Assembly: GCA_963662715.1 (NCBI GenBank)
Contig: OY759724.1
Coordinates: forward strand, 2,714,662-2,778,661
Direction of reading: 5' to 3'
Source of the DNA: Candidatus Omnitrophota bacterium
GTDB taxonomy: Bacteria; Omnitrophota; Gorgyraeia; Zapsychrales; JANLHA01
DNA length: 64,000 nt
This document shows, one piece after another, positions 2,716 to 10,330 of this stretch; position 1 is the first letter of the stretch, and each line of letters begins with the position of its first letter. A program made the position numbers and the translations under genes. The notes under the pieces are model-generated. The model did not search any database, was not told where the DNA came from, and was given only the letters and a program-made list of their open reading frames with translations.

Positions 2716-4101
2716 ATGAGGAAAATAAAATATGGCATTTTTTTGCAGATTTTGGCGGTTTTTTTAGTTCTTGTCTTTTGCTGGGATCAGAAATTATACG
2801 CTGCGGTGACGTTAAGCGTTTCTCCTGATGAGGGAGGGAATAGCCTGCGGTTCGGTAGGGTCGATACGTTCTCCTCCGTAGACAAGGAAGTCCGGATCCG
2901 GGTGACCGGCAGTGAAGGCAATCAGTATCAGGTTTTTCAGAGAATGATGGCTCCTTTGGTCAATGAGAAAGGCGAATCTCTTGACCGTTCAGTGATATTG
3001 ACCGGCGGGTTGTTAGGGTCGAATGCCCGGGGGAGTCTGTATATCCAGGACGTAGAACAGTTGGGTTTTTCGGATCAGCAGGTTTATTCCTCTGATCAGG
3101 CGGGCACGGCGGATTCATTTGTGCTTCTTTACCGGGTCGATCCATCGGCGATTTCTGCAACAGGCTCTTTTCAGGGGCAGCTCCTTTATACTGTCCGGCC
3201 TATCGGAGGGAGCAGTTTTGACGAAGTTGTTCTTACTTTGACCCTGGATGCCGGAGGTGATTTGAAAATTGAGGCCCAGGGGCCGGACGGCTCCGACCGG
3301 GTAAGGTTGACGACGGCCGAACGACATATTCAGGACAGTGCTTTTTCTGTTTCCTTTTCCAGTAATATCGGGGGAAGCAAGATCCGTATCTATCAGGAGG
3401 TGGAATCGTTGCCCCGAGATGAACTTCTGCAGCCCGTAGAGGAAGGTTTGGTCCAGTATCTGGCGCTGGGAGGGGAAAACGGGGATATTCAGCAGGCCAG
3501 TTCTGCTGCCCTGCGTCCGGGAAGGGAGCTTTTGTATGAAAGTACGGCGACTCATGATACCGTTGATGTCTTTTTCAGCGTGAATGCAGATGTGGTGCAG
3601 GAATATAAGGCCGGGGATTATGAAGGCAGCATTCGTTATATTATCGAAAGCCGTAACGGGGAGCAGACCGTGGATTGCGTGCTGGCTTTAAATGTAGCGT
3701 CTGTCTTTGAACTGAATGTTGAATATCCTCAGGAAGGAATGAGTTTCCGGGGGGCTTTGGAGTCCGATCCCCCGCAGGTACGGGAAGTGCAGGTAACAGT
3801 GAAATCCAACCTGGGCAAACCTTATGTTATTAACCAGCTGATTCAAGCCCCGTTAACCAATGAAAAAGGCGTTGAATTTTCCCATGAATTTTTTACTATG
3901 AAAGAGGAGGTTCTGGACGGGGACGGGCATATCCCGCATGATGATTTTTCACCAGTTGGCATCGGTGAGGTTCCTTTGTACGTTTCTGATGACCAGGGGT
4001 CATCCGCAGAGTTGAAAATAAGCTATCGTATGAAGCCTTACCATTTTATGCAAGCTGGAAGTTATAAACTGCAAGTTGTTTATTCTTTAGGCGCTATTTA
4101 A
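2716..4101 (+). CDS. Secreted two-module protein; each module ends in an SCPU/Csu-pilin-like C-terminal strand motif
   Basis: Signal peptide; internal duplication (QVFQRMMAPLVNEKGESLDRSV ~ VINQLIQAPLTNEKGVEFSHEF); module ends GSFQGQLLYTV and AGSYKLQVVYSL; N-terminal AAVTLSVSP resembles a donor strand. Confidence 0.45.
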   Translation: MRKIKYGIFLQILAVFLVLVFCWDQKLYAAVTLSVSPDEGGNSLRFGRVDTFSSVDKEVRIRVTGSEGNQYQVFQRMMAPLVNEKGESLDRSVILTGGLLGSNARGSLYIQDVEQLGFSDQQVYSSDQAGTADSFVLLYRVDPSAISATGSFQGQLLYTVRPIGGSSFDEVVLTLTLDAGGDLKIEAQGPDGSDRVRLTTAERHIQDSAFSVSFSSNIGGSKIRIYQEVESLPRDELLQPVEEGLVQYLALGGENGDIQQASSAALRPGRELLYESTATHDTVDVFFSVNADVVQEYKAGDYEGSIRYIIESRNGEQTVDCVLALNVASVFELNVEYPQEGMSFRGALESDPPQVREVQVTVKSNLGKPYVINQLIQAPLTNEKGVEFSHEFFTMKEEVLDGDGHIPHDDFSPVGIGEVPLYVSDDQGSSAELKISYRMKPYHFMQAGSYKLQVVYSLGAI

Positions 4102-4128
4102 CTGTTTTCCTGAAAGGAGGGAAATGAA

Positions 4129-4773
4129 ATGCGAAAATTGATTTGGTTAGCGATTTTTCTTGCCGGAGCCATGATGTGTTTGAGCCCGGCCGTCTACGCG
4201 CAAACAAGTTCTGCGGCGTATGATATCTCTGTCACCATTGATAATGCCAGTACAGCCACGTTTGTGGTCTATCAGATAGATGCCGGTGTTTTCACGGCCT
4301 GGACAGACACGACGCTGTCATTCAATCCGGTCCTGACCGATGTCAGAGAAGACCCGGCCGACCCGCCTGCCTATGCCTATTTAGGGGATGTGTATTATGC
4401 CATCGATGTTTTCCCGTACGGGGCAGGGGCCTTGAACGTAACACTGTCCTACAGCAATGCTGATCCGGCTTATGATCTGGGTGTGCATGCCATCGGAACT
4501 CCGGTTTCGAATGATGATAATGGAACACCAACGATTTATACTGACGATACTGAGACTCCGGTAGGGGTTAAAGCAATCCTGAACAGTATTGCTCAGACAA
4601 TATATGCCTCCGATATCCTCGCTAACGGGGATTACTTGCGTTTTTACGTCGGTTTGGCCACGGGTGATCCCACTGAGAATGAACCGTCCGGCGCTGTCCC
4701 GTTTAATCCCGGTGATACCCCTGGTCATTATGAAGGCACGTTAACAATGACAGTGGCAGCACCTGGGCCATAG
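4129..4773 (+). CDS. Secreted candidate fimbrial subunit (Csu/SCPU-like C-terminal motif)
   Basis: Strong RBS AAGGAGGG; signal peptide ending AVYA; C-terminus PGHYEGTLTMTVAAP resembles the CsuA/B terminus GDYKDTLLVTVNF. Confidence 0.45.
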   Translation: MRKLIWLAIFLAGAMMCLSPAVYAQTSSAAYDISVTIDNASTATFVVYQIDAGVFTAWTDTTLSFNPVLTDVREDPADPPAYAYLGDVYYAIDVFPYGAGALNVTLSYSNADPAYDLGVHAIGTPVSNDDNGTPTIYTDDTETPVGVKAILNSIAQTIYASDILANGDYLRFYVGLATGDPTENEPSGAVPFNPGDTPGHYEGTLTMTVAAPGP

Positions 4774-4793
4774 TCAGATCTTGAAAATTATTT

Positions 4794-4829
4794 TATTATG
4801 CGGGCAAGGGATTCCTTGCCCGCATAATA
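4794..4829 (+). terminator. Perfect 16-bp inverted repeat (hairpin, 4-nt loop) between subunit gene and downstream assembly genes; candidate attenuator or mRNA-stabilising stem-loop
   Basis: tATTATGCGGGCAAGG gatt CCTTGCCCGCATAATa read directly; no canonical U-tract follows. Confidence 0.45.
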
Positions 4830-4842
4830 TGTCCTGTGATAT

Positions 4843-5655
4843 ATGAAAAATTTTTATCTGGTATTACTATTTATTTGTATTTTTTATGGGGGGATCCCGT
4901 CTCCGGCGGAAGCCCAACTGGTCCTGCAGAAGAGTGTCGTCCAACACGATATCCCGAAGGGCGGGACTGTCGTTGATTCTTTTGATGTCACTAACAGCAC
5001 CAACAAGCCTTTAGGGATAAAATTGTACTGGCAGGATTTTATTTATAAAGCTCCTTACGACAAGGGGGCAAAAGATTTTATGCCGGCGGGGACATCCGAT
5101 TATTCCTGTGCGGATATGGTGACCTTCAGCCCCACAAATCTGACGTTGCCGCCGTTCGGCAAGGAGAATATCAAATATTCTTTCAAAACCCCTGAAGATT
5201 TCCAGGGGGGCTGTGATGGCGTGCTCTTTTTTGAAATGGACCGGGATGTCAGTAAGGCCAAAATGGGCATGAGTTTTGTGACGCGTATCGGGGCGCTGTT
5301 TTTCCTGGAATCAACGGATAAAGATAAAACGGCTGATGTGAAAGATTTTTCTTTCGATCAGGCCCGTCTGCAGGGGTCCTTTCATAATCAGGGGAATATT
5401 GTTCTTTTCCCCAAAGGCATTTATTATATTCTCAATGAGGACGGTCTGGTGGAGGACCGGGGCGAGGTGAACAAGCTTTATATCCCTCCCGGCGCCAGAG
5501 CCGACTTTCATTTTTCTGTGCCGGAAGCGTTGGATGCCGGGACCTATACGGTTGTCCTGACGTTCGATCTTGACGGCGGGGACAGTATTGTTAAAGAAGC
5601 TGATTTCACGAAAAGTCCTGCCGGGGCTTTTCGTCTTATCGCCACAAGGGATTGA
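4843..5655 (+). CDS. Secreted protein with PapD-like periplasmic chaperone motif and Csu-like C-terminal strand
   Basis: Signal peptide; VTNSTNKPLGIKLYWQDF resembles the PapD N-domain N..NK.P.L.Q.W motif; C-terminal DAGTYTVVLTF. Confidence 0.4.
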   Translation: MKNFYLVLLFICIFYGGIPSPAEAQLVLQKSVVQHDIPKGGTVVDSFDVTNSTNKPLGIKLYWQDFIYKAPYDKGAKDFMPAGTSDYSCADMVTFSPTNLTLPPFGKENIKYSFKTPEDFQGGCDGVLFFEMDRDVSKAKMGMSFVTRIGALFFLESTDKDKTADVKDFSFDQARLQGSFHNQGNIVLFPKGIYYILNEDGLVEDRGEVNKLYIPPGARADFHFSVPEALDAGTYTVVLTFDLDGGDSIVKEADFTKSPAGAFRLIATRD

Positions 5656-5818
5656 TGGTTTTTGCGTAAAATATATAAGATAAGGTGGTGAATGTATTTC
5701 TGTGTTTCGATTTCACGTCCAAGTTCCATGTTCATTGCCGTAATGCGCTGAGCGTGAAATTGATGCTTGCTCACAAAGTAGAATATTATGCACAGGAGCC
5801 GCAGAATAGCCGTCGGGT

Positions 5819-8554
5819 ATGACAAAACTTTCGTTGGGGATTCTTATAGCCGCATTATTAGCTGTCTTTTTTTGCGGAACAAGCTATGCAGACTCGGAGA
5901 CAGATTACCATTATTACATGGTCCTGGGGATCAGAGCTTTTGATAAAGGTTTCTATGATAAAGCGATTTGGTATTTTGAAGAAGCCCAGGCTGTAGACCC
6001 TACCAAAAGCACTCCTTTAAAATATATCAAGCTTATTAAACGGTTCAAGGAAGGCCGTTTGTCTGTTGTTCAGCCGCCCGTTCGGCAGAAAAAAGGGGCG
6101 CCCACACCCGTTGCGCAGGAAAAGTCCGTCATTGAACAGCACCTTGCGACATCCCGAAAAATGATCGAAGCTAAAGACATGGTCCTGCAGCCTAAGGAGG
6201 CTGAAGTTCTTGTCCTGAATGATCAGTTCTGGTCTCTGCAGCCTAACCTGGAACTGGAAATTGAAACGAACAAGGTTTATGTTTTTCAGGGACAAAATGT
6301 CAAACGTTTTTTAAGTGTCAAAGAAGGCGTGCTGGATGTCGACCGTCTTGATAAGGACCGTATCAGCATATCAGCCAAGAACCGCGCATCGACATTTTTC
6401 CATGTCTGGGACGACCGCGGACGCTGGACTTTTCATGTCCAGGGGAAGCTCCCGGTTCTTTATCAGAATACCCGGGCTCAACAGTTTAAGGATACAGGGA
6501 TGGAAGACAATCCTCCTTTAAAGATAGCTTATTCTAATAACTGGGGGGCTATTTATCGGGGCAACAGTATTCCGGACATGGAACGTTCGAGTTTGACATT
6601 TACCCAGTGGGTCGGGACACACGGAAGAATCCCATACGGAAACTTTGATGCCTCCATGAATTTTTACAAATATGCAGAATCCACGGAAAGAATCGGTGAA
6701 CGGATGGGCTTGGGGGACGGACGCATCGGCCCGTTTAAGGATTTTAATATACGCGGCTTTGATACCGAAGTCTATTTGTCGGATTTCTCCGTGCCGGGGC
6801 GAAGCTTCCGAGGGGTGCGGTTTGACAGTTACGCATTTAACCGGAGATTGAATTATACATTATTTCAGGGGCAGGACAGGGCCCAGTTCCTTTTTATCAG
6901 CCCTTCCATTCTGGATGTCCGTAAGACCTATATTGAAGGCGCCAGTGCCACCTTGTTCCCGGACAGTGACCATAACTACACGATTAATTACGCCCGGGGC
7001 TACGGAGACTACCGGGATAACTTTTTGAAAAATAAAGCATTTTCTGCTGAAACCGAACATAAGTTTTATAATTTAAAGGTCTCCGGGGAAGTGGGGTACG
7101 ATGAAGACGTCTATAGCGAAGTTATACGGACAGAATTTAAAAGATATAATCACACTCTGAATGTGAATGTCCGCGATATTCATAAGGATTATGTTACCGT
7201 TGTCGGACGCCCTTCCGGCCGGGGGGAAGCCGGCGGGAATATCCGTTATAATTTGAAACTGGAAAAGACGCGTTTTAATTCCAACCTCGACGTTTACCGG
7301 AACCGCTATCTGAACAACCCTGAACAGGACGGGGTGAATTTTGACTGGAACGGCTCCATGAATCATACCTTGTCTTCCAGCTCTTCCTGGTCCGCGGCAG
7401 CATTTGTCTCCTATACGCCGCAGCTTGTTTCCCCGCATCAAAGCATGAGCCTGACAAACTATTATCATAAAAGGTTCCCTTTCCTCTACGGTCAGGCCAT
7501 GTCGATGTCTTTGGGGCATTCTTTCCAGAGAAATCGTTATGAAGAATCTCCCTTCGCGGAATTTGACCGCAACACGTTATCGGCGGGCTTTAGAATCCCG
7601 CTGTTCCCGGACGTGGGTTTTTTTGCCAATTATGATTACTCTTTTGTCCATAATATCCAGGAAGACCTGCAGACTTATCCCCAGGTCTTCACAGCCGGCG
7701 TGGACTATAATAAAACCCTGTATAATCATGTCATCGGCCGGTGGAGCCTCCGTTATCGTAATGAGGAAAATGCCACCGGTCAGTTCAGTTTTTTATCGGG
7801 AGAAGATTCGATCCGGGGAACAGTGGGCCTCAGTTACCGCCCGAATCCCGGTTTTGAAATTTACCTGGACAGTAATGTCCGCAGTGTCTGGACAGAGGAC
7901 CCGGATAACCCCGCTTTTAATGATGCCGATGTCCGAATCGGTTTTCGCTCCAGTTGGGACACGTTCTTCCATTGGAATCCCACCGGGATTTTCCAGGGAC
8001 GGGTCTTTAATGATAGCAACGGCAATGCCCGGTACGACCCGGGGGAAGAGGGGCTGGCTGACATTGGGGTGAAAGTCGGAGATAAGACCGTTAGGACCAA
8101 CAGCCGGGGAGAGTATTTTGCCACGGTCAGGGCGAAAAAAGTGCGTGTCGCTTTGGATCTGGGATCTTTACCCATGGGATACATCAATTCAGACGGTTTT
8201 ATGCGGGATATTGTCGTGGAACATAGACAGGTTAATGCGGTTGACTTTGGCCTGACCAGCCAGGCCGGGATTTACGGTGTCGTTTATATCGACCGGAACC
8301 TGACCGGAACGCTGGATCAGGGAGATGAGTTTATCGCAAGGGCGAAGATTATCCTTGATGGACAGCATGTCGCGTACAGTGATTTTGAAGGGACATACAG
8401 CTTTGATAACATTAAACCCGGTCAACATGTCATCTCGATCGATATCAATTCTCTTCCGCTCCAATATATCCCGCTTATCAAGCTCAACAATGAGATTGAA
8501 GTCGGGGAAGGGATCACGTATGTTTTTAATATCCCGTTAAAGGAAGGAAAATAA
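5819..8554 (+). CDS. Large outer-membrane protein: TPR-like N-terminus, CpaC/secretin-N-like beta domain, Tyr/Asn/Gly/Arg-rich putative beta-barrel, two C-terminal CarboxypepD_reg-like domains
   Basis: Signal peptide; segment VLVLNDQFWSLQP...RFLSVKEGVLDVDRLDKDRISISAKNRASTFFHVWDD resembles the CpaC N-domain; aromatic-rich alternating beta pattern; C-terminal SNGNARYDPGEEGLADIGVKVGDKTVRTNSRGEYF. Confidence 0.5.
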   Translation: MTKLSLGILIAALLAVFFCGTSYADSETDYHYYMVLGIRAFDKGFYDKAIWYFEEAQAVDPTKSTPLKYIKLIKRFKEGRLSVVQPPVRQKKGAPTPVAQEKSVIEQHLATSRKMIEAKDMVLQPKEAEVLVLNDQFWSLQPNLELEIETNKVYVFQGQNVKRFLSVKEGVLDVDRLDKDRISISAKNRASTFFHVWDDRGRWTFHVQGKLPVLYQNTRAQQFKDTGMEDNPPLKIAYSNNWGAIYRGNSIPDMERSSLTFTQWVGTHGRIPYGNFDASMNFYKYAESTERIGERMGLGDGRIGPFKDFNIRGFDTEVYLSDFSVPGRSFRGVRFDSYAFNRRLNYTLFQGQDRAQFLFISPSILDVRKTYIEGASATLFPDSDHNYTINYARGYGDYRDNFLKNKAFSAETEHKFYNLKVSGEVGYDEDVYSEVIRTEFKRYNHTLNVNVRDIHKDYVTVVGRPSGRGEAGGNIRYNLKLEKTRFNSNLDVYRNRYLNNPEQDGVNFDWNGSMNHTLSSSSSWSAAAFVSYTPQLVSPHQSMSLTNYYHKRFPFLYGQAMSMSLGHSFQRNRYEESPFAEFDRNTLSAGFRIPLFPDVGFFANYDYSFVHNIQEDLQTYPQVFTAGVDYNKTLYNHVIGRWSLRYRNEENATGQFSFLSGEDSIRGTVGLSYRPNPGFEIYLDSNVRSVWTEDPDNPAFNDADVRIGFRSSWDTFFHWNPTGIFQGRVFNDSNGNARYDPGEEGLADIGVKVGDKTVRTNSRGEYFATVRAKKVRVALDLGSLPMGYINSDGFMRDIVVEHRQVNAVDFGLTSQAGIYGVVYIDRNLTGTLDQGDEFIARAKIILDGQHVAYSDFEGTYSFDNIKPGQHVISIDINSLPLQYIPLIKLNNEIEVGEGITYVFNIPLKEGK

Positions 8555-8716: not shown

Positions 8717-8977
8717 TTATTTGGCGACGATGGTTTTTCGAATAACCGTGTGCCCGTCTTCCTGTATTTCTTCCGTAAAGACATTGAATTGAGCTTTTAT
8801 CGGCGCGTTATCAACAGTTTCTTCAGACATGTTTTCCATCGGGGCATTAATACCGGGTACGGCCGGTATATAAACGACGATCCTGAAATCCTGGGAGGCC
8901 GTCGCCCCGTAAATATCCTGGCACAGGGATGCGAGGATTATCGCTGTGACCATGCCTAAAAAGTATATATGTTTCAT
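8717..8977 (-). CDS. Small secreted protein (86 aa)
   Basis: Signal peptide MKHIYFLGMVTAIILASLCQDIYGA; AGGGAG-like SD just upstream; the antisense + ORF lacks such features. Confidence 0.35.
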   Translation of the reverse strand: MKHIYFLGMVTAIILASLCQDIYGATASQDFRIVVYIPAVPGINAPMENMSEETVDNAPIKAQFNVFTEEIQEDGHTVIRKTIVAK

Positions 8978-9337: not shown

Positions 9338-10330
9338 ATGATGGTAAATCACGATAAGCAGGAAAGAGAGGCTGTCTCCATGAATAACATTGATCAAAAA
9401 TATACTGCCGCCCCAAGAGGGATTCCTAAACTTGTGGGGATCGGCATTTGTATGGGCGCGGCCAATATTATCCCCGGAGTATCGGGGGGAACCATCGCCT
9501 TTATCTTTGGAATATATGCGGACCTGATCAGGGCTATTAAGCTTTTTGATTTTGAAGTGTTGAAAATGGCTTGCCGGCGACAATGGAAAAAGTTGTTGGA
9601 TTATTTTCCCTGGAGATTCCTGGCGGCGATTCTCTCCGGAGTGGTCCTGGCGATATTTTCTTTTGCCAAATTGATGAGCTGGCTGCTGCAGTATCAGCCG
9701 GTCCCGACTTTCGCCTTTTTCTTCGGCCTGATTCTGGCCACCGCTCCGGTTATCGGCCGGACGATTAAACAATGGAATCCGTCTGTTGTGGCCCTGGGCA
9801 TCATTTCAACCATCGGTATGTATTTTTTTGTCGGCATGGTTCCGGTGAACACTCCGGATTCCTTGTGGTTCCTTTTCCTCTGCGGGGCCATTGCGGTCAG
9901 CACCATGATTTTACCCGGGATATCGGGATCTTTTGTCTTGGTGATCCTGGGGAAATATCAATATATCATAGACTGCATTTCACACAGAGATATTGTCCCG
10001 TTGGGGGTTGTGGCTTTGGGCTGTGCCGTGGGAATACTCATTTTTATCCGTATCCTGAACTGGCTGCTGAACCGTTACCATGATCAGACATTGGTCGTCC
10101 TGGCGGGCATGGTTTTGGGGTCTCTGCGTAAGGTGTGGCCCTGGAAGGAAACGCTTAAAGTCACGGTATCCAGTAAGGGTAAAATCATCCCCATTGAGCA
10201 AATCAACCAGCTCCCCGCTGAATTTTCTCCGGAGGTCGTACTCGCTGTTATTCTTTTCGTGCTGGGCCTGCTCCTCGCCTGGAACCTGGGCGGGCGTTCG
10301 GAATCTCAGAATCTGCAGACAGAGGAGTAA
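9338..10330 (+). CDS. DUF368-family polytopic membrane protein (family recently linked to undecaprenyl-phosphate translocation); the start may be the ATG at 9380
   Basis: Two repeated PG[VI]S[GR]xG motifs (IPGVSGGTIAFIFG, LPGISGSFVLVILG); ~8 predicted TM helices. Confidence 0.55.
   Translation: MMVNHDKQEREAVSMNNIDQKYTAAPRGIPKLVGIGICMGAANIIPGVSGGTIAFIFGIYADLIRAIKLFDFEVLKMACRRQWKKLLDYFPWRFLAAILSGVVLAIFSFAKLMSWLLQYQPVPTFAFFFGLILATAPVIGRTIKQWNPSVVALGIISTIGMYFFVGMVPVNTPDSLWFLFLCGAIAVSTMILPGISGSFVLVILGKYQYIIDCISHRDIVPLGVVALGCAVGILIFIRILNWLLNRYHDQTLVVLAGMVLGSLRKVWPWKETLKVTVSSKGKIIPIEQINQLPAEFSPEVVLAVILFVLGLLLAWNLGGRSESQNLQTEE

Follow-up and report, generated by a model that had tools for sequence, protein, structure and literature searches.

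A conserved gene cluster of Omnitrophota that probably encodes a very divergent chaperone-usher-like pathway

Introduction

The described systems closest to the locus reported here are the archaic (sigma) chaperone-usher pathways (CUPs), such as Csu of Acinetobacter (gene order CsuA/B-A-B-C-D-E) and CupE of Pseudomonas, the ECP/Mat system of E. coli (EcpA-EcpB-EcpC-EcpD-EcpE), and the WxL clusters of Firmicutes, in which the WxLIP protein consists of DUF916 (PF06030), DUF3324 (PF11797) and a transmembrane (TM) helix. We analysed a cluster of five genes, designated A to E, which starts at position 2,716 of a 64,000-nucleotide (nt) stretch of the genome of a Candidatus Omnitrophota bacterium (assembly GCA_963662715.1, contig OY759724.1, forward-strand positions 2,714,662 to 2,778,661), hereafter called the window. 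Based on the conservation of the cluster, the predicted structures and the comparison of its protein families with those of the systems above, the locus probably encodes a very divergent chaperone-usher-like pathway, leading from Sec export to assembly at the surface, for which a donor-strand-type mechanism would be the best reading.

In chaperone-usher pilins, the C-terminal strand is strand F, not strand G, and the usher barrel is built from 24 strands, with strands 6 and 7 flanking an inserted plug domain. Archaic CUPs have been reported in a wide range of phyla (PMC9452303). For the WxL clusters, the commonest of which comprises one WxLIP with a small and a large WxL protein, AlphaFold2 (AF2) predicts the insertion of a WxLIP strand into WxL (PMC10599100). 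A literature search for Omnitrophota together with chaperone-usher or usher returned nothing relevant. An earlier note on this DNA, made from the sequence alone, had read positions 2716-8554 as a four-gene locus of Csu/SCPU-like subunits with a PapD-like chaperone candidate and a non-usher outer-membrane partner.

Results

The locus consists of the following features (positions are those of the window):

Gene A, 2716 to 4101, plus strand, 461 amino acids (aa): secreted protein with three tandem homologous beta-rich domains
Gene B, 4129 to 4773, plus strand, 214 aa: small secreted Thr/Ser/Ala-rich beta protein
Hairpin, 4794 to 4829, in the B-C intergenic gap (strand not applicable): 16-bp stem with 8 G-C pairs and a 4-nt loop
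Gene C, 4843 to 5655, plus strand, 270 aa: predicted soluble periplasmic two-domain PapD/WxLIP-like chaperone
Gene D, 5819 to 8554, plus strand, 911 aa: predicted outer-membrane usher-like translocon
Gene E, 8717 to 8977, minus strand, 86 aa (about 60 aa mature): small secreted protein, convergent with D

The four plus-strand open reading frames (ORFs), A to D, lie exactly where the earlier note had placed them, and all four proteins carry a Sec signal peptide as it had stated, judged by eye from a basic n-region, a hydrophobic core and an AxA-type cleavage site; N-terminal helices were also present in the AF2 models of C (residues 2-16) and D (residues 4-17). The count of four genes was incomplete, as the fifth gene E, which is located outside 2716-8554, and the hairpin after B had been overlooked.

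A scan using one genome per species identified 90 relatives of C, with 79 loci kept, and 81 loci were examined for gene order. The order A-B-C-D was retained in approximately 72 of these 81 loci, representing about 80 species-level Omnitrophota genomes, and most of the exceptions were truncated contigs. The named homologues belong to Candidatus Omnitrophota, and nearly all loci are labelled Omnitrophota or Omnitrophica, some of them with automatic 'Planctomycetales' or other labels. A to D are supported as a conserved secreted or envelope operon, and the cluster is conserved as five genes, A to E, with both E and the hairpin after B belonging to the system. As in archaic CUPs, the subunit genes precede those of the chaperone and the outer-membrane protein; unlike in archaic CUPs, no tip-adhesin gene follows D, and the small convergent gene E is found there instead. 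Starting at offsets of 1413 and 2127 nt from A, each divisible by 3, the ORFs of B and C are in frame with it, probably by coincidence.

The proposal that the 270-aa protein C is a PapD-like chaperone, including the recognition of an N..P..L..W motif (N..NKPL..LYW, C 49-63), was confirmed by the AF2 fold, by Foldseek, by hhalign and by an invariant Arg in a G1-like strand. The AF2 model, built from a 20-sequence alignment, contains two beta-sandwich domains and has a predicted local distance difference test (pLDDT) score of 89.7. When it was compared with the PDB by Foldseek, the best match was the WxLIP of E. faecium (9i1y/9i25, 2e-12), and the class-5 chaperone CfaA was matched with a template modelling score (TM-score) of 0.63-0.66. 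Further matches were Caf1M, EcpB, DraB, CupB2, FimC and PapD, with many CUP chaperones at E-values between 1e-9 and 3e-11.

The same relationship was found from the sequences. EcpB was the sole solved relative when the C family profile was compared with PDB sequences (E 0.015), and it was the best match by hhalign as well (82-86%), while a set of six annotated archaic CsuC-type chaperones, fetched from plasmids, aligned with the full length of C at 81% over 209 columns. There was no match between C and FimC by hhalign (0.7-1.2%). In the same assay, however, the archaic chaperones themselves reached no more than 20% with FimC and 13% with EcpB, so C is related to the superfamily no less closely than its recognised branches are to one another. 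The profile check that the note had suggested for C, with PF00345/PF02753 (PapD_N/PapD_C), turned out negative, giving no match at E<=10 in 20 out of 20 members of the C family. PF06030 (WxLIP_PGBD) was found in 12 of these 20 members, below threshold (best 6.9e-6), and WxLIP_HBD (PF11797, DUF3324) in 2 of them. We regarded weak matches of C to 'bindosome BasC' and 'UpsA' as noise, and a tblastn search of plasmids with C gave nothing useful.

Two strands of C correspond to segments of the archaic chaperones:

F1-like strand, GVLFFE, aa 126-131, plus strand: aligns with the archaic F1 segment 'idElP' via E131
G1-like strand, T-R-I-G-A-L-F-F-L-E, aa 147-156, within nt 5272-5313, plus strand: contains the invariant R148

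In 82 C sequences, R148, G150, L152, F153, E131, D65 and F66 are invariant, and position 32, in the first strand, is K or R in 93% of members. R148 opens the motif R-phi-G-x-L-F-F-phi-E and, in the alignment with the periplasmic two-domain chaperones of archaic CUPs, is matched to the conserved Arg of their G1 strand ('mRysiPlF'). C has neither a C-terminal TM helix nor a lipobox; the chain ends at domain 2, and the protein is predicted to be soluble.

For the outer-membrane protein D, the AF2 model (pLDDT 85.2, 53 homologues) was divided into its elements by DSSP, which showed an usher-like layout of a periplasmic N-domain, a large barrel and two C-terminal beta-sandwiches:

TPR-like helices, after the signal peptide, aa 24-77 (nt 5888-6049), plus strand
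Linker, aa 84-114 (nt 6068-6160), plus strand: disordered (pLDDT < 50) and variable in length
Beta-domain, aa 129-210 (nt 6203-6448), plus strand: PF13629-like, followed by a helix at 214-226
Barrel, aa 235-714 (nt 6521-7960), plus strand: about 26 long strands, no inserted plug
Two C-terminal beta-sandwiches, aa 722-909 (nt 7982-8545), plus strand: SdrD_B/CarboxypepD_reg-like

The turns of the barrel alternate between short (2-5 residues) and long (4-16 residues), as would be expected for a 26-strand barrel with both ends in the periplasm. The linker varies by up to about 300 residues, and homologues of D range from 911 to 1,230 aa (P0025, P0033, P0040, P0048). In locus L001, the linker is rich in Pro, Lys, Glu and Gln.

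By Foldseek, the 12 best PDB matches of D were all FimD/PapC (E 6e-21 to 2.5e-14, 750-850 aligned columns). The next best barrel was FadL (5.5e-9), followed by TonB-dependent transporters and porins, which leaves the ushers ahead of FadL by about 5 orders of magnitude or more. Compared with the translocation domain of FimD alone, D gave a TM-score of 0.46. Because FimD/PapC, which have the same domain order, are the best structural matches of D, the description of D as a non-usher partner is untenable at the level of architecture; it holds at the level of sequence, where D is not of the PapC type, and the protein is atypical as had been stated. A large barrel followed by two beta-sandwich domains is also what D has in common with the outer-membrane protein of archaic CUPs. 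Two other identities were considered for D and rejected: a polysaccharide porin of the PgaA/BcsC/AlgE type (TPR plus barrel) and an LptD-like barrel. In both cases, the ushers outranked all other barrels, with AlgE at about 1e-6.

The domain hints that had been noticed in D (TPR, secretin-N-like and CarboxypepD_reg) were real, and mostly below threshold, as the Pfam matches were SdrD_B at 6.8e-7, CarboxypepD_reg at 0.002, T2SS-T3SS_pil_N at 0.11 and TPR_2 at 0.18. PF13629 was precomputed on about 17 out of 55 D homologues, and the D profile matched only TPR and SdrD proteins among PDB sequences.

The two putative clients of the chaperone, A and B, contain these elements:

A domain 1 (d1), aa 30-166 (nt 2803-3213), plus strand: motif strand at nt 3163-3195
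A domain 2 (d2), aa 167-318 (nt 3214-3669), plus strand: motif strand at nt 3610-3645
A domain 3 (d3), aa 319-461 (nt 3670-4098), plus strand: motif strand at nt 4054-4089
B mature N-terminal strand, aa 25-38 (nt 4201-4242), plus strand: family consensus F-x-V-S-A-T-x-P-x-A-T-G
B C-terminal strand, nt 4720-4755, plus strand: family consensus G-T-Y-T-G-T-L-T-x-T-A-T, PGHYEGTLTMTV in the window

A had been described as having two modules. It consists of three homologous domains (pairwise hhalign: d1-d3 99.1%, d1-d2 98.9%, d2-d3 96.1%), all of which end in a G-x-[YF]-x-G-x-x-x-Y-x-V strand, and one copy of the motif had been missed. A is always present as a single copy, one per locus in 73 loci. 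In 10 loci, B has been duplicated into 2-4 tandem copies, and of the four families it diverges most, with a mean column identity of 30%, compared with 45% for A and 50% for C.

All of the strings on which the proposed strand motif was based were found, namely GSFQGQLLYTV (A 150-160), AGSYKLQVVYSL (A 447-458), the B string listed above (B 198-209) and AGTYTVVLTF (C 232-241). The motif as it had been written matches none of the four strings quoted for it, and it is not common to A, B and C: a relaxed form, G.[YF].[GDSKTEL].h.h.h, is present in A (three copies, at 150, 300 and 448) and B (one copy) and absent from C. With 4 matches in the 945 aa of A, B and C versus 3 in the 15,004 aa of the other ORFs in the window, the relaxed motif is enriched about 20-fold in the three proteins. 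The string in C is located about 30 residues from the C-terminus, inside domain 2, and is a generic GxY strand of a beta-sandwich, not a strand of the subunit type.

The position of the motif is strictly kept. From the motif Tyr to the C-terminus there are 11 residues in 72 out of 74 A and 54 out of 67 B sequences, and 13 in the clade of the window itself, compared with 10 residues in 17 out of 17 archaic pilins and tip subunits carrying the motif; in the background, G-x-[YF] was found at that position in just 12 out of 548 unrelated ORFs. Such a fixed C-terminal tail would be expected if the carboxylate is anchored in the cleft of a chaperone. The clients of archaic CUPs likewise end in a G-x-Y-x-x-T-x-x-x-T strand at a fixed distance (10 residues in SCPU, 11 here), and CsuA/B ends in GDYKDTLLVTVNF, as had been stated. 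Compared with the SCPU end aGtYtDt..vTl.[YWF]-COOH, the C-terminal strand of B and A is a similar motif with Gly for Asp and without the terminal aromatic residue. The likeness had been drawn to the G-strand of pilins, which was a misassignment, the C-terminal strand of these pilins being F.

A sequence signature of donor-strand acceptors may also be present. Conserved amphipathic strands follow A d1 and d2 ('LNVFLE' and 'FxIDLE'), ahead of the first strand of the next domain, and no counterpart of such a closing strand was found after A d3 or after the motif of B, from which we infer that d3 and B could each have an open groove of the acceptor type. At the other end of A, the N-terminal LSVxP strand aligns with the first strands of d2 and d3, and is therefore part of the domain and not a separate N-terminal extension. 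We propose A as the distal (tip) client of the chaperone and B as the polymerising (shaft) subunit.

Whether A and B are pilins of a known family was addressed by profile searches. No significant Pfam, NCBIfam or PDB-sequence match was obtained for either family (65 A and 67 B members), and nothing was found for A and B in the PDB by sequence and profile searches. The membership in the Csu/SCPU family that had been claimed for them was not upheld, as PF05229 matched neither A and B of the window nor the 132 homologues (67 B and 65 A). When the mature sequence of B was compared with those of 12 annotated SCPU pilins by hhalign, the score was 6% in local and 13% in global mode, with just 18 C-terminal columns aligned, and the A domains scored <=0.9%. 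An initial B-SCPU score of 68% was discarded because it was driven by aligned signal peptides. Against the 89.5% obtained for SCPU versus Fim pilins in the same assay, these scores do not support SCPU membership. Comparisons of A and B with EcpD, EcpA, Fim pilins and CsuE-type tips, and of A with C, were negative by hhalign, and a Pfam match of A to DUF7411 was judged to be noise.

Taken literally, the earlier reading would mean genuine Csu/SCPU pilins that a PapD-like chaperone handles and that are exported through an outer-membrane protein with no relation to ushers. The B strand GtYtGTLtiTaT does resemble SCPU aGtYtDtv.vTlt, the sole region that hhalign aligned, the N-terminal 'tFxVsAxI' of SCPU resembles 'FxVSATxP' of B, and D lacks sequence similarity to ushers. 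Judging from the sequences, the likeness of B to SCPU pilins appears to be one of motifs at both termini, and with the absence of PF05229, the hhalign scores, a tail of 11 instead of 10 residues without a terminal aromatic residue, and ushers as the best structural neighbours of D, family membership is largely refuted and this reading is very unlikely to be correct. The cassette also differs from archaic CUPs in having no PF05229, PF00345 or PF00577 signal, and in the three-domain protein A, which has no similarity to SCPU.

The ECP system offers a further comparison. As in our locus, a small and a large subunit are paired (EcpA, 195 aa, and EcpD, 547 aa), and its chaperone EcpB is the only solved one that the sequence profile of C finds, as well as the best hhalign match. 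It is unlike our locus in that A and B have no similarity to EcpD or EcpA and D none to EcpC, and in that the gene order and the accessory genes differ.

Alternatively, C and D might secrete A and B as monomers that stay on the surface or are released, such as adhesins, S-layer-like or matrix proteins, with the fixed C-terminal strand acting only as a recognition signal for the chaperone and the translocon. The evidence on C and D fits this equally well, A is large and multi-domain, unlike typical pilins, and no separate N-terminal extension is evident in it, the LSVxP strand belonging to the domain. However, d3 and B, without a closing strand, would have a groove that needs to be filled permanently, a conserved N-terminal amphipathic strand suited to filling such a groove is shared by B and E, and B is duplicated in the way of pilin families. 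We therefore consider secretion without polymerisation improbable, and a chaperone-usher-like assembly of A and B the better account.

Gene E was identified by a hidden Markov model (HMM) in 49 out of 70 loci that have sequence after D, and 48 of these 49 genes are convergent and adjacent to D, with a median gap of about 9 nt; in the window, E is likewise convergent with D and adjoins its stop codon. The mature N-terminal strand of E, F-x-I-S-V-T-I-P-A-I-P-G-x-N, is B-like, and hhalign aligned it with the mature N-terminus of B over 22 columns (53%, E 1.4e-4). The C-terminus is conserved as R-[ND]-N-x-x-V-x-V-x-S-I-V-x-[LKP]. The E motif was found in 28 out of 4,559 ORFs, 23 of which are directly after D. 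We propose that E is an accessory component, either a terminator or anchor or a trans-acting plug.

The 69-nt gap between B and C folds at -28.3 kcal/mol. Approximately 35 of about 60 loci have a B-C gap of 50-140 nt that folds at -0.35 to -0.53 kcal/mol per nt, compared with -0.02 to -0.27 kcal/mol per nt for A-B gaps of similar length. As there is no T-run after the hairpin on the plus strand, it is not a canonical intrinsic terminator. Stem-loops are located after the major-subunit genes of the pap and fim operons, and the B-C hairpin is reminiscent of them; by analogy, it may act as an mRNA attenuator or 3' stabiliser that raises A and B over C and D.

More distant relatives of C were also found. 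A profile search of 5.8 billion proteins returned a tight Omnitrophota cluster at E <= 1e-50, followed by a large gap. Beyond the gap, three proteins of about 333 aa (P0151-P0153) have the architecture of WxLIP, namely a signal peptide, two immunoglobulin-like (Ig) domains and, at the C-terminus, a TM helix followed by a charged tail; PF06030 is present in one of the three, and the HMM of 82 C sequences matches them at E 1e-15 to 1e-21. TM-anchored, WxLIP-like homologues of C, sometimes two per locus, were observed in monoderm-type metagenomic loci (L090 4605-9868, L091 2-2625 and L092 2446-6727), in which a D-like gene is absent. Their secreted neighbours end in ...AAGNYQNALIFTAVPNY, ...EAGNYENEVIYTATATF, ...ASGTYVSTLTYICTPTF, ...AAGQYATTVLYIVVPSY and ...PAGSYTGTVILVATPTY, which is the same strand, [AS]G-x-Y, always with a tail of 12 residues that ends in Tyr or Phe. 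Two-Ig proteins paired with clients that have a fixed C-terminal strand are found in both monoderm-type and diderm loci. We count this association across lineages among the evidence for a chaperone-usher-like pathway, and it is also a feature in which the locus resembles the WxL clusters.

An exhaustive search of 1.84 billion representatives with the C profile gave 183 matches at E <= 1e-30, 1,743 at <= 1e-10 and 6,998 at <= 1e-3. Intermediate matches keep the signature motifs and add one to three Ig domains; in a distant branch, P0282 (367 aa) has an extra C-terminal Ig domain, and P0255 has several more. In locus L094 (1-4230), a three-domain C-like protein is followed by a 1,077-aa D-like protein, which was matched by the D_barrel (4e-42), D_N (2e-14) and D_C (3e-58) HMMs; it has no TPR, and CarboxypepD/SdrD-like domains are present three times at its C-terminus. 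On the upstream side, this contig is truncated. The adjacency of C and D in this distant branch indicates that the C-D pair is an old module.

Another possible reading is a static complex like that of the WxL clusters, in which C would be a stable WxLIP-type partner holding A and B in the envelope by strand insertion, no fibre would be formed, and D would serve as a pore or anchor that positions the complex at the outer membrane. The best Foldseek match of C is a WxLIP, its Pfam matches are to the WxLIP domains and none to PapD_N, and the closest homologues in the out-group show the complete WxLIP layout with its TM helix. In addition, the gene content, one two-Ig protein with a large and a small client, is like that of the commonest WxL cluster (PMC10599100). 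On the other hand, C lacks the TM helix and lipobox and is predicted to be soluble, and no WxL domain (PF13731, E<=1) was detected in the 132 A and B homologues. In the host, which is a diderm, an usher-like barrel is dedicated to the system and tightly linked to it, C aligns over its full length with archaic chaperones including the G1 Arg, and polymerisation is suggested by the fact that B is duplicated and has a conserved N-terminal strand. Unlike C as we propose it, WxLIP is regarded as a stable surface component and not as a periplasmic shuttle. Taken together, a static complex is an unlikely explanation of this locus, and we continue to favour a chaperone-usher-like pathway.

Several observations concern the surroundings of the cassette. 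Directly upstream in the window, there are genes for a coiled-coil protein (35-982) and an HtrA/DegP-family serine protease with PDZ_3 (1004-2494), which are syntenic with the cassette only in the closest 8-9 loci. A periplasmic quality-control protease beside a pilus-like operon is suggestive, but it may merely reflect the synteny of the lineage. Downstream of E, at 9338-10330, there is a VCA0040-like membrane protein (undecaprenyl phosphate translocase-like, PF04018, 8.5e-86), for which no synteny with the cassette was found in other loci. In another Omnitrophota locus (L074, 2523-11032), three C-like chaperone genes and four B-like genes are present, giving several chaperone-subunit pairs in one cluster.

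Discussion

The pathway that we propose would start with the Sec export of A, B and E into the periplasm. There, C would capture A and B by pairing its G1-like strand with their C-terminal G-x-Y...T strand, and the invariant Arg148, together with Lys/Arg32, would anchor the C-terminal carboxylate of the client. C could then deliver the clients to D, where the TPR-like helices and the secretin-N-like beta-domain would form an N-terminal docking region, and the barrel would pass A and B to the surface. The first subunit to enter would be A, which has three domains, is single-copy and lacks a spare N-terminal strand; it would form the distal tip or adhesin. B, which is often duplicated, would follow and polymerise, its N-terminal strand filling the open last domain of the subunit ahead of it. 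Apart from its B-like N-terminal strand, E contains little, and it would serve to end the fibre, to anchor it or to gate a barrel that has no plug. The hairpin after B could keep the A and B transcripts in excess over those of C and D.

The analysis shows the conservation of the cluster, the predicted folds of C and D, the homology of C, the repeats of A, the fixed tails of A and B and the presence of E. From these we infer the physical interaction of C with its clients, export through D, donor-strand polymerisation, the order A-B-E and the role of the hairpin.

A number of points weigh against a chaperone-usher-like pathway. In Pfam and NCBIfam scans of the window proteins and of all family members, no PapD, Usher, SCPU, Fimbrial or WxL model matched any component. 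The GxY strand is not by itself specific to pilins, being common in beta-sandwiches and found at the end of the internal domains of A as well. The order of genes, with that for a large protein first, and the convergent gene E are unlike classical operons. For C, the best Foldseek E-values and the Pfam matches are those of WxLIP, which is thought to be a stable surface partner and not a transient chaperone (PMC10599100).

More of these points concern D. The global TM-scores of D to ushers are low (0.31-0.41), partly as a result of domain orientation, and part of its Foldseek signal may reflect a shared layout of a large barrel followed by beta-sandwiches. There are about 26 strands instead of the 24 of ushers, only 4 residues separate strands 6 and 7 and no loop exceeds 16 residues, so that the plug insert is absent, and the N-terminal region, with its TPR and PF13629-like parts, is unrelated to the N-terminal domain of ushers, just as the SdrD_B-like C-terminal domains set D apart from archaic ushers. 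D has no match to Pfam Usher (PF00577), and its hhalign scores to FimD, EcpC and 5 archaic ushers were <=1.6%, compared with 99.6% between an archaic usher and FimD. This negative sequence result is not decisive, since EcpC is itself so divergent that it was missed in the same assay by the archaic usher profile (0.5%).

The system is previously undescribed: none of the profile families that define the known pathways is matched, the translocon is plug-less, and the subunits are new families. As to its origin, the cassette could perhaps be a living intermediate between the WxL/WxLIP complexes of monoderms and the chaperone-usher pili of diderms, two systems regarded as unrelated, a possibility that we consider doubtful. 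An ancient two-Ig core, binding clients by their C-terminal G-x-Y strand of fixed length, would then be membrane-anchored in monoderms and a soluble periplasmic shuttle in diderms, where it would have been coupled to a plug-less barrel of about 26 strands, either an ancestor of ushers or an independently recruited analogue, gated in trans by its own N-terminal beta-domain or by E.

The likeness of C to both CsuC/EcpB and WxLIP, combined with a fixed client strand, makes the origin of donor-strand assembly directly testable, and an usher-like translocon without a canonical plug raises the question of how a large pore is gated. For annotation, four protein families without a specific name could gain one, as at present only SdrD_B is annotated on D and names are otherwise generic or transferred, for example 'P pilus assembly chaperone PapD' (JGI) on some C homologues.

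To summarise, the cluster would extend the chaperone-usher principle to a phylum and to a set of components that no profile library recognises. Omnitrophota are widespread, mostly uncultured and often ultra-small bacteria with suspected host-dependent lifestyles, and a conserved fibre or adhesin machine of this kind would be a prime candidate for their attachment to partners or surfaces.

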